Assembly: GCF_003334385.1 (NCBI RefSeq)
Contig: NZ_QOWN01000003.1
Strand: one strand, 5' to 3'
DNA: 64,000 bases
Source of the DNA: Escherichia coli
GTDB taxonomy: Bacteria; Pseudomonadota; Gammaproteobacteria; Enterobacterales; Enterobacteriaceae
Below, one piece after another: positions 37,215-41,313 of the stretch. The position numbers and the translations under genes were made by a program. Every line of letters starts with the position of its first letter. The stretch's first letter is position 1. Under the pieces are notes generated by a model. That model did no database searches, was not told where the DNA came from, and worked only from the letters and a program-made list of their open reading frames with translations.

Positions 37215-37321
37215 AGCGATTCTCCTTCTGATAACGCATACGAAGACAGTGTAAATCTTTTAACGTATTGGATACAGAGAAGAAACAGAGGGAAAAAGGA
37301 GAAGACCAGATTAAGAAAATC

Positions 37322-37398
37322 TGGTGCGTCCGAGTGGACTCGAACCACCGACCCCCACCATGTCAAGGTGGTGCTCTAACCAACTGAGCTACGGACGC
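37322..37398 (-). tRNA. valW: tRNA-Val (GAC)
   Basis: Reverse complement reads GCGTCCGTAGCTCAGTTGGTTAGAGCACCACCTTGACATGGTGGGGGTCGGTGGTTCGAGTCCACTCGGACGCACCA: cloverleaf-compatible, GAC anticodon, 3' CCA. Confidence 0.93.
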
Positions 37399-37402
37399 AG
37401 GA

Positions 37403-37479
37403 TGGTGCGTTCAATTGGACTCGAACCAACGACCCCCACCATGTCAAGGTGGTGCTCTAACCAACTGAGCTATGAACGC
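37403..37479 (-). tRNA. valV: tRNA-Val (GAC)
   Basis: Reverse complement reads GCGTTCATAGCTCAGTTGGTTAGAGCACCACCTTGACATGGTGGGGGTCGTTGGTTCGAGTCCAATTGAACGCACCA; tandem copy 4 nt from valW. Confidence 0.93.
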
Positions 37480-37786
37480 AACGTTGTAGGTGACAACGGG
37501 GACGAATATTAGCGGCAGAGTGGGAAGGTGGCAAGAGGCAAAACGTAATTTTCTGCGCTATTTCGACCGTTTGCAGAGCTTTTAAGCAAATTGGCTATAT
37601 TTTGTTGATTTGCAAGGGTGATTTTTATTCAGGATCGCATTTACATCTGATACAACCCAATAATTCGTGTATCAGAGTTTAAACAGAGTTGTTTGCCACC
37701 ATCTCAAATCTGTCGTGGATAAATCCTCCGTAGCCTTTACACTTAGGTAGCAATAAAGGCACACAGATGCAGCAAAGGAATAAATC

Positions 37787-39043
37787 ATGGGATCTGATGC
37801 GAAAAACTTGATGAGCGACGGGAACGTGCAAATTGTTAAGACCGGCGAGGTCATTGGCGCGACGCAACTTACTGAAGGCGAGTTGATTGTTGAAGCTGGC
37901 GGAAGAGCCGAAAATACCGTGGTCACGGGGGCTGGCTGGTTGAAAGTGGCAACCGGTGGGATCGCCAAATGCACACAGTACGGTAACAATGGCACGCTAT
38001 CGGTCAGCGATGGTGCCATTGCCACAGATATTGTTCAGTCCGAGGGAGGCGCAATTAGTCTCTCTACGCTCGCTACGGTTAATGGCCGCCATCCCGAAGG
38101 TGAATTCAGCGTTGATAAAGGTTATGCCTGCGGTTTGTTGCTGGAAAATGGCGGTAACCTGCGTGTACTGGAAGGACATCGCGCGGAAAAAATCATTCTC
38201 GATCAAGAGGGCGGCCTGTTGGTTAATGGGACAACCTCAGCGGTCGTGGTAGATGAAGGTGGTGAATTGTTGGTGTATCCAGGTGGGGAAGCCAGCAATT
38301 GTGAGATTAATCAGGGCGGCGTTTTTATGCTGGCCGGGAAAGCCAGTGATACGTTGCTTGCTGGTGGCACCATGAATAATCTCGGTGGTGAAGACTCTGA
38401 CACTATTGTTGAGAATGGATCCATTTATCGTCTGGGGACGGATGGCCTTCAGCTCTACAGTTCCGGTAAGACGCAAAACCTGTCCGTGAATGTGGGTGGT
38501 CGGGCTGAAGTGCATGCCGGTACGCTGGAAAACGCGGTAATACAAGGTGGGACAGTGATCCTGTTGTCACCCACCAGCGCGGACGAAAATTTTGTCGTAG
38601 AGGAAGATCGCGCACCGGTTGAACTGACCGGGAGTGTTGCATTACTGGACGGCGCTTCAATGATTATTGGTTATGGCGCAGAGCTGCAACAATCAACGAT
38701 TACTGTACAGCAGGGCGGTGTGTTGATTCTAGACGGCAGTACGGTAAAAGGTGACAGTGTCACTTTCATTGTTGGTAACATCAATCTGAATGGTGGAAAA
38801 CTGTGGCTGATCACTGATGCGGCAACGCATGTGCAACTGAAAGTGAAACGCCTGCGCGGAGAGGGAGCGATTTGCCTGCAAACCAGTGCAAAAGAAATTT
38901 CACCTGACTTCATCAATGTGAAAGGGGAAGTTACCGGGGATATACACGTTGAGATAACAGATGCCAGTCGGCAAACTCTGTGTAACGCTCTGAAATTACA
39001 GCCAGACGAAGACGGGATTGGCGCAACGCTCCAGCCTGCGTAA
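37787..39043 (+). CDS. ydhQ: autotransporter-passenger-like repeat protein lacking signal peptide and beta-barrel
   Basis: 418-aa ORF with recurring GG-centred repeats of about 19-20 residues across most of its length. Confidence 0.8.
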   Translation: MGSDAKNLMSDGNVQIVKTGEVIGATQLTEGELIVEAGGRAENTVVTGAGWLKVATGGIAKCTQYGNNGTLSVSDGAIATDIVQSEGGAISLSTLATVNGRHPEGEFSVDKGYACGLLLENGGNLRVLEGHRAEKIILDQEGGLLVNGTTSAVVVDEGGELLVYPGGEASNCEINQGGVFMLAGKASDTLLAGGTMNNLGGEDSDTIVENGSIYRLGTDGLQLYSSGKTQNLSVNVGGRAEVHAGTLENAVIQGGTVILLSPTSADENFVVEEDRAPVELTGSVALLDGASMIIGYGAELQQSTITVQQGGVLILDGSTVKGDSVTFIVGNINLNGGKLWLITDAATHVQLKVKRLRGEGAICLQTSAKEISPDFINVKGEVTGDIHVEITDASRQTLCNALKLQPDEDGIGATLQPA

Positions 39044-39049
39044 AAATAC

Positions 39050-39075
39050 AGGCGCAACCCGTGAAGGTTGCGCCT
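39050..39075. terminator. bidirectional intrinsic terminator between ydhQ and mdtK
   Basis: Hairpin AGGCGCAACC-CGTGA-GGTTGCGCCT with T-rich tracts on both strands. Confidence 0.65.
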
Positions 39076-39083
39076 TGTCTTTA

Positions 39084-40478
<1,395 letters not shown>

Positions 40479-40671: not shown

Positions 40672-41313
40672 ATGTTTACGGGGATTGTACAGGGCACCGC
40701 AAAACTGGTGTCGATTGACGAGAAACCAAATTTTCGTACGCATGTGGTGGAGTTACCCGACCACATGCTGGACGGCCTGGAAACCGGTGCTTCCGTGGCG
40801 CATAACGGTTGCTGCCTGACCGTGACGGAAATTAACGGCAACCATGTCAGTTTTGACCTGATGAAAGAAACGTTACGCATTACCAATCTTGGCGATTTAA
40901 AAGTGGGGGATTGGGTAAACGTTGAGCGTGCGGCGAAATTCAGTGATGAAATTGGCGGACACTTAATGTCAGGTCATATTATGACCACTGCTGAAGTGGC
41001 GAAAATATTAACCTCAGAAAATAATCGCCAGATCTGGTTTAAAGTCCAGGATAGTCAGTTGATGAAATATATTCTGTACAAAGGATTTATTGGCATCGAC
41101 GGTATTAGCCTGACCGTCGGCGAAGTCACGCCAACGCGTTTTTGCGTCCATTTAATTCCGGAAACACTGGAACGCACGACTCTTGGGAAGAAAAAACTTG
41201 GCGCACGCGTCAACATTGAAATCGATCCACAAACTCAGGCAGTGGTAGATACGGTAGAACGTGTGCTGGCGGCACGAGAAAATGCCATGAATCAACCAGG
41301 CACAGAAGCCTGA
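40672..41313 (+). CDS. ribC: riboflavin synthase (ribE)
   Basis: 213-aa ORF starting [15 protein letters not shown], with an internal duplicated lumazine-binding fold. Confidence 0.92.

Follow-up and report, generated by a model that had tools for sequence, protein, structure and literature searches.

Can a protein that is built like the passenger of an autotransporter be an autotransporter if it has neither a leader nor a β-barrel? This question is raised by ydhQ, a gene in the 64,000-nucleotide (nt) stretch of Escherichia coli DNA that was analyzed here (contig NZ_QOWN01000003.1; hereafter, the window). In general, autotransporter passengers are considered to be modules that end up secreted or at the surface and do not fold before they are exported. 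The identity of the gene is clear, as its open reading frame (ORF) matches the PRK09945 (NCBIfam NF007409) equivalog model with 942.5 bits, against a cut-off of 830, over residues 1–418 of both protein and model. Moreover, the window as a whole resembles E. coli K-12, the ydhQ region (1604 nt) is 100% identical to that of K-12-derived genomes, and RefSeq annotates the E. coli gene as 'ydhQ: AIDA repeat-containing protein'. The gene, its annotation, and its leaderless state are already in the literature. What is added here is that YdhQ also departs from the definition of an autotransporter at its C-terminal end, that the gene is an Escherichia-specific insertion, that purifying selection on it can be quantified, and that the protein carries a conserved acidic loop. 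On balance, it appears rather probable that YdhQ is a stand-alone protein, kept by selection, that comes from the middle of an Ag43/AIDA-type passenger and serves as a soluble binding scaffold in the cytoplasm.

The passenger ancestry of YdhQ is seen first in its repeats. A preliminary description, made from the sequence alone, had noticed segments resembling the repeats of AIDA-type passengers, and a search with hidden Markov models bears this out. The Pfam AIDA family (PF16168) matches residues 99–159 (nt 38081–38263; E=2.2e-22), with weaker copies at 31–69 and 147–193, and the NCBIfam 'strand-loop-strand repeat' model TIGR04415 gives 43.9 bits against a cut-off of 30. The equivalog models for Ag43/Cah and AIDA-I, with curated cut-offs of 1200, match only partially (88.8 and 54.2 bits, respectively). 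The same description had the repeats run over nearly the whole 418 amino acids (aa) and centered them on GG. The first of these claims holds for residues ~14–261, where the rungs are regular, but not for residues 278–418, which are pertactin-like. As for the second, there is indeed a periodicity of ~18 residues, as BLOSUM self-similarity, Gly, and hydrophobic autocorrelation peak at lags of ~18, 27, 36, and 54 (z of 3–4.6 against shuffled sequences), but GG dipeptides by themselves are not significantly enriched (14 versus 9.4 expected, P=0.055).

The fold agrees with the repeats. An AlphaFold2 model that drew on 35 sequences is all-beta and confident, with a mean predicted local distance difference test score (pLDDT) of 90.2 and a predicted template modeling score of 0.88. 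Residues 14–261, where the pLDDT is mostly >90, are built from units of 16–19 residues that read 'xLxVxxGGxAxxTxVxxGG' in the model. When the model was compared with the Protein Data Bank (PDB) using Foldseek, the top matches were the passengers of Ag43 (7koh, 7ko9, 7kob, and 4kh3) and TibA (4q1q), with a probability of 1.00 and E values of 6e-13 to 4.5e-9; these were followed by the passengers of Hbp, pertactin, and IgA1 protease at E ~1e-3 to 1e-2. Sequence search of the PDB also finds the Ag43 family and TibA (E of 1e-22 to 1e-26). Thus, by its model and by these matches to Ag43, TibA, Hbp, and pertactin, YdhQ has the β-helical fold of a passenger. Toward the C-terminus, Pfam Pertactin (PF03212) matches residues 329–403, although only with positions 1–78 of the 121 in the model (E=2.5e-5).

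YdhQ is therefore best compared with Ag43 (Flu), in particular its alpha-domain, and with AIDA-I and TibA, whose 19-residue strand-loop-strand repeats belong to the same family as its own (PF16168, TIGR04415). The right-handed β-helix is common to YdhQ, Ag43, and TibA; a pertactin-like region follows the repeats in YdhQ as it does in Ag43, AIDA-I, and TibA; and the YdhQ block 'G.F.V..G.A..LLLENGG.L.VLEGH.A' aligns with residues ~270–320 of Ag43. In effect, YdhQ works like, and descends from, a passenger of this group. Nevertheless, sequence identity to these proteins is just ~20–40%, and YdhQ has only 418 aa, compared with ~1040–1290 aa. Unlike them, it lacks the extended signal peptide, the N-terminal part of the passenger, the linker helix, the β-barrel, and apparently also the end of the autochaperone. 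The genes differ as well, since ydhQ belongs to the core genes of the genus and occurs in a single copy, whereas those of Ag43, AIDA-I, and TibA are variable island genes.

The absence of a leader is evident from several features. Within the first 70 residues, the maximal Kyte–Doolittle hydropathy over 10 residues is 1.19, compared with 2.3–2.7 in full-length relatives, so no signal peptide is recognized; SignalP 6.0 is likewise reported as negative for YdhQ (PMC13101318). The N-terminus has no RR motif indicative of a Tat signal and bears a net charge of -1, and no hydrophobic segment occurs anywhere in the protein (maximal 19-residue hydropathy of 1.28). At 37781–37783, two codons ahead of the start, the same frame is closed by a TAA; thus, a longer N-terminus is impossible. 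Nor is the N-terminus an artefact of annotation, because the Shine–Dalgarno sequence (SD), the start codon, and the first codons are invariant in an alignment of eight Escherichia-lineage loci. The start codon itself falls inside sequence that is homologous to passengers.

A similar picture is seen at the other end. The barrel family PF03797 has no Pfam match in YdhQ at E<=10, and the AlphaFold2 model shows neither a barrel nor a linker helix; in fact, helices of four or more residues are absent from it. Only 95 residues follow position 323, too few for a 12-strand barrel, and the protein ends in ...LQPA instead of the aromatic C-terminal β-signal of its relatives (...VGF or ...SWSF). By BLASTP, YdhQ residues 2–392 align end to end with residues 72–486 of a 771-aa autotransporter, which goes on into the rest of the autochaperone region, the linker, and the barrel; the alignment with P0106 stops ~55 residues short of the linker region of that protein. 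YdhQ thus stops short of the linker helix and the barrel that its full-length relatives have, apparently also of their final hairpin, and, as judged from these alignments, corresponds to the interior of a passenger with both ends missing. A tblastn search with nine full-length autotransporters against the whole window, made to detect remains of a leader or a barrel, found nothing outside the ydhQ ORF (best E of 0.14). The claims of the preliminary description that YdhQ lacks a signal peptide and a C-terminal translocator are consequently upheld.

What do these truncations mean for export? Type Va autotransporters, such as pertactin, Hbp, YcgV, YpjA, and YfaL, have in common with YdhQ a β-helix of the passenger type and an autochaperone-like C-terminal region, but their architecture of leader, passenger, and barrel fails in YdhQ at both ends. 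Since the leader and the barrel are two defining features and neither was found, YdhQ is not a type Va autotransporter. Without a Sec leader and a β-barrel, neither crossing of the inner membrane nor insertion into the outer membrane by a type V route is open to it. Two-partner secretion (type Vb) is not indicated either, given that Pfam finds AIDA and Pertactin but no TPS domain, and that the neighbors are two tRNA-Val genes, ydhR, and mdtK, with no TpsB gene among them. A separate translocator partner, which the preliminary description had proposed to seek in other genomes, is encoded neither nearby nor elsewhere in the window. More generally, no translocator, glycosyltransferase, or autotransporter gene is linked to ydhQ.

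A protein truncated in this way could be a relic, and the preliminary description had considered YdhQ to be possibly decayed. Several autotransporter genes of E. coli K-12 have decayed. Fragments of such genes occur among the matches to YdhQ, and those of cluster P0067 are, like YdhQ, AIDA-repeat passenger fragments without a complete export machinery. In addition, ydhQ is truncated at both ends with respect to all full-length relatives, lies in a variable region beside tRNA genes, has no known phenotype, and is used as a neutral locus. All of this would fit a degraded autotransporter gene whose non-functional remains have simply not disappeared yet. However, the P0067 fragments have many truncated lengths within a single cluster, whereas ydhQ has one fixed length throughout the genus and a low ratio of nonsynonymous to synonymous substitution rates (dN/dS of ~0.1).

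Conservation of the gene is in fact extensive. All 5426 complete E. coli genomes carry the ydhQ region, at nucleotide identities of 97–100%. The sole disruption seen among them is in E. coli AR_0013, the one genome where coverage of the region is not continuous and where an inserted transposase of the ISEcp1 family splits the gene (locus L014, 3308–6225). Orthologues of 418 aa exist in E. ruysiae, E. marmotae, E. albertii, and further Escherichia clades. A deeper lineage has a YdhQ of 419 aa and 71% identity, at the same place beside mdtK (L005, L012, and L013; Logan SRR31578456, SRR26188688, and SRR26188687); MdtK of this lineage is 95% identical to that of K-12 as a protein, and its gene 83.6% identical in nucleotides. 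Hence, six species-level lineages share one ORF length without insertions or deletions (indels), and a seventh departs from it by a single codon (418 codons in seven loci, 419 in one lineage).

The substitution pattern points in the same direction. Pairwise Nei–Gojobori estimates against K-12 give ydhQ a dN/dS of 0.097–0.126 at dS of 0.25–1.03, with all bootstrap 95% confidence intervals (CIs) within 0.055–0.172; the deeper lineage gives 0.057 with a saturated dS. These estimates are pairwise and do not come from a phylogenetic model; between the most distant sequences, dS approaches saturation. For comparison, dN/dS is 0.012–0.039 for mdtK, ribE, and cfa, and 0.057–0.17 for ydhR. YdhQ thus evolves ~10 times faster as a protein than its housekeeping neighbors, yet far from neutrally. 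Constraint is tightest at residues 31–215, in which the block 89–145 is almost invariant on the conservation map, and weakest at residues 326–418 (dN/dS of 0.16–0.28). Taken together, ydhQ is under purifying selection across the genus, and the marks of a pseudogene, namely, a dN/dS near 1, variable length, and frame disruptions among lineages, are not observed in it. An unconstrained frame of 1257 nt should carry many stops and indels at about one substitution per neutral site, while in ydhQ dN/dS stays at ~0.1, with narrow CIs, even where dS reaches ~1, the ORF length is fixed, the start codon, SD, and leader are invariant, the gene is found in all 5426 genomes, and the protein has been detected. 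Because of these selection data, a remnant is essentially excluded and we regard it as very improbable; decay is the part of the preliminary description that is not supported. YdhQ is probably a working intracellular protein and not a decaying remnant.

Where did the gene come from? The coding sequence, together with its leader and terminator, makes up a segment of ~1.5 kb of the Escherichia lineage, from ~37555/37591 to 39082, which lies between the mdtK stop and the valVW promoter. By blastn, the homology that other genera share with E. coli covers mdtK up to its stop and resumes on the promoter side of the tRNA genes, at 37554 for Salmonella and Enterobacter and at 37590 for Pseudenterobacter. 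In these three genera, which lack the ydhQ segment, mdtK is followed by the same two tRNA-Val genes after ~150–410 nt. In contrast, all of the Escherichia loci that were compared have the constant order ydhR, two tRNA-Val genes, ydhQ, mdtK, ribE, and cfa. The insertion of ydhQ is, thus, specific to the lineage. A word-indexed protein search with YdhQ returned only orthologues and fragments from Escherichia and Shigella. When 1.84 billion representatives were searched exhaustively, the vast majority of the relatives, ydhQ fragments aside, proved to be large autotransporters. The nearest of them is 38% identical and 1534 aa long, and no other family with the size and architecture of YdhQ appears among these representatives. 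With no second family of this kind, and with the nearest relative at 38% identity, a recent donor of ydhQ is not visible.

The repeats themselves raise another explanation, in which YdhQ is a cytoplasmic substrate or decoy for O-heptosyltransferases of the Aah/TibC family, or acts on paralogous autotransporters as a modulator prior to export. Heptosylation of AIDA-type repeats takes place in the cytoplasm. TIGR04415, which YdhQ matches above the cut-off, is named for repeats that are targeted by heptosyltransferases, and the TibA structure 4q1q, among the top structural matches, is a fragment glycosylated by TibC. Nevertheless, ydhQ is universal in the genus and linked to neither a glycosyltransferase nor an autotransporter gene, and K-12 and most other E. 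coli are not known to have Aah/TibC. Thus, this role seems highly unlikely.

A cytoplasmic protein agrees with what is known about the location of YdhQ. In PMC13101318 (2026), where YdhQ is named a 'leaderless autotransporter', a leaderless YdhQ–pFAST fusion is fluorescent, folded, and cytoplasmic; the same source groups YdhQ with the autotransporters as a scaffold and contrasts its leaderless cytosolic fusion with YcgV. The protein is expressed, as whole-cell proteomics detects YdhQ and reports a 5.5-fold change with vanillin (PMC6561319). Native YdhQ, which carries no leader of its own, would presumably be cytoplasmic as well. Regarding partners, EF-Tu copurified with YdhQ that carried a tandem affinity purification tag (PMC2672614), and orthogonal organic phase separation (OOPS) recovered YdhQ among 17 unannotated RNA-associated proteins (PMC11066096).

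In the main rival to a cytoplasmic scaffold, YdhQ would be exported as an adhesin or 'leaderless autotransporter': it would leave the cytoplasm by a non-classical route, reach the surface either alone or with a translocator in trans, such as a paralogous barrel or the BAM or TAM machinery, and act there in early adhesion. Its passenger ancestry and Ag43-like fold are in line with this proposal, as is the ~10-fold faster evolution of the protein relative to its neighbors, which is common for surface proteins. Furthermore, YdhQ is named in the COG3468 list of a survey of extracellular-vesicle proteomes, and PMC9110714 lists ydhQ with positively selected sites in a selection scan and states at second hand that the gene is needed for early adhesion. 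According to PMC13101318, 'display' of agarase and pFAST is also higher with YdhQ and an exogenous signal peptide than without a scaffold. However, these display assays relied on foreign leaders and overexpression, so that leakage from the periplasm is possible, and the fusion without an added leader remains cytoplasmic in that same source. YdhQ has no signal peptide, Tat motif, or hydrophobic segment with which to leave the cytoplasm; no barrel, linker helix, or C-terminal aromatic signal with which to enter the outer membrane; and no translocator gene within the window to replace them. Passages of PMC13101318 that mention a barrel do not take up the lack of one in YdhQ. Anchoring of YdhQ in the outer membrane, as implied by the display in that source, is thus unexplained given the sequence, and leakage might account for it. 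The adhesion statement, the listing in vesicle proteomes, and the fast protein evolution lend some weight to export as an adhesin, but we consider it unlikely. In consequence, the roles of ydhQ as an 'autotransporter adhesin' of genome surveys and as a recently used display 'anchor' need to be read again, because its sequence is not one with which it can be an autotransporter.

The evidence thus favors the suggestion of the preliminary description that YdhQ is an orphan passenger module or cytoplasmic β-helix protein. If so, it would fold in the cytoplasm as a soluble and strongly acidic β-helix, as its composition gives a net charge of ~-27, and might act as a binding scaffold through a conserved surface. 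Candidate surfaces are the rungs at 89–145 and the acidic loop at 262–277. This loop has a pLDDT below 50 at residues 264–274, a regional dN/dS of ~0–0.14, and a conservation string that is almost entirely identical; in full-length relatives, by contrast, the corresponding segment is dissimilar and ~8 residues shorter. As it is conserved yet unmodelled, and sits on a conserved rod, the loop may be the best candidate for an interaction site. The partners of YdhQ might belong to the translation machinery or to machinery associated with RNA. Taken one step further, YdhQ could be an exapted type V passenger β-helix whose acidic rod serves as a scaffold in the sphere of translation and RNA, perhaps as a mimic of nucleic acid or a binder of basic RNA-associated proteins, with the loop and the rungs at 89–145 as its sites and with the EF-Tu copurification and the OOPS recovery as hints; this more specific picture is tentative and, as a whole, rather doubtful.

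Several observations weigh against a cytoplasmic scaffold of this kind. No function or phenotype of ydhQ is established, and strains in which it is deleted serve as a neutral control and an integration site. EF-Tu is a frequent contaminant of copurification, recovery by OOPS does not prove specific binding of RNA, and the charge of YdhQ makes direct binding of RNA by the protein unlikely. The vesicle listing, the second-hand adhesion statement, and the surface reporter activity obtained once a foreign signal peptide is added to YdhQ, all described above, speak for the surface instead, and selection was estimated in the pairwise manner already indicated. Finally, a promoter scan gave no consensus match to a sigma-70 promoter on the ydhQ strand. 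Even so, a passenger-derived β-helix has been kept by selection for a long time without a leader or a pore, which shows that the fold is open to reuse in a different role, probably in the cytoplasm. It also means that a locus popular as a 'neutral' site for deletion and integration is under clear purifying selection. Should an intracellular function be demonstrated, ydhQ would represent a notable exaptation of a secretion-system module.

The expression of ydhQ is probably low and controlled post-transcriptionally, through a conserved leader that contains GGA. This leader extends over ~37722–37786 in the alignment of the eight Escherichia-lineage loci and includes the SD AAGGA at 37775–37779. 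PMC5389547 cites the ydhQ transcript as a predicted target of CsrA, a proposal made so far by computational studies only. Also, a site selected by FlhDC in systematic evolution of ligands by exponential enrichment has been reported between ydhQ and valV (PMC9962212); it falls in the part that is common to other genera, that is, on the side of the tRNA promoter. By eye, TTGCCA-N19-GATAAA in the conserved leader is a weak promoter candidate, which no tool backs and which is not claimed here. A perfect inverted repeat of 9 bp, further upstream, was considered as an operator and rejected, given that other Escherichia species do not conserve it. With Rfam, the leader and the gene yield only tRNAs and artefacts antisense to them. 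One such match, to HPnc0260 (37250–37360, + strand; truncated, 89.9 bits), is antisense to tRNA-Val and is most likely spurious, as the model includes sequence complementary to tRNA. The coordinates of these and other features of the locus are given in Table 1; the terminator scan places the start of the terminator 6 nt after the ydhQ stop.

Table 1. Features of the ydhQ locus, in positions of the window
Feature	Position	Strand	Description	Source
Two tRNA-Val(GAC) genes, valV/valW	37322-37398, 37403-37479	-	Upstream of ydhQ, divergent; ydhR beyond	
ydhQ 5′ region	37591..37786	+	Specific to the Escherichia lineage; middle variable, last ~65 nt strongly conserved	
Inverted repeat TCTGATACA / TGTATCAGA	37646-37654, 37668-37676		13-nt spacer; variable part of the K-12 ydhQ leader	
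ydhQ coding sequence	37787..39043	+	418 aa and stop; stand-alone AIDA-repeat β-helix protein	ORF list, NCBIfam equivalog
YdhQ residues 14-261	37826..38569	+	~14 rungs of right-handed β-helix	AlphaFold2 model, rung listing, Pfam, TIGR04415, Foldseek
YdhQ residues 262-277, acidic loop SPTSADENFVVEEDRAPV	38570..38617	+	Low confidence or disorder in the model; near-invariant across species	AlphaFold2 model
YdhQ residues 278-418	38618..39040	+	Last β-helix rungs and truncated pertactin-like (autochaperone-type) region	
GC-rich hairpin with T-runs on both strands	39050..39075		Bidirectional intrinsic terminator common to ydhQ and mdtK	Terminator scan
mdtK	39084..40457	-	Downstream of ydhQ, convergent	ORF list

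Some further observations concern the surroundings of the gene. The valV/valW pair, together with what follows it (L009, 8523–8686 and 8844 onward; L010, 8528–8685 and 10791 onward, in the loci of other genera), is a hotspot for lineage-specific content. What lies past the tRNA genes differs by genus: Salmonella has genes for the type III secretion system (T3SS) of Salmonella pathogenicity island 2, Enterobacter has type VI secretion genes, and Pseudenterobacter has others. In the Salmonella locus, these are ssa-like genes (Bac_export, FliP, SepQ, and a T3SS ATPase), and in the Enterobacter locus, genes for TssF, TssG, SciN, and a gp25-like protein. Compared with the secretion genes of this hotspot, ydhQ sits on the other, promoter side of valV/valW. 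The spacer between mdtK and valVW in Pseudenterobacter, of ~410 nt, has a called ORF of 46 aa (L011, 8411–8551, - strand) without a Pfam match and without significant similarity to ydhQ by blastn. Finally, ribE (40672–41313 in the window) shows variation of its own, as the C-terminus of RibE differs in length among Escherichia species, which gives proteins of 213, 208, or 205 aa, and the remainder is 94–97% identical.

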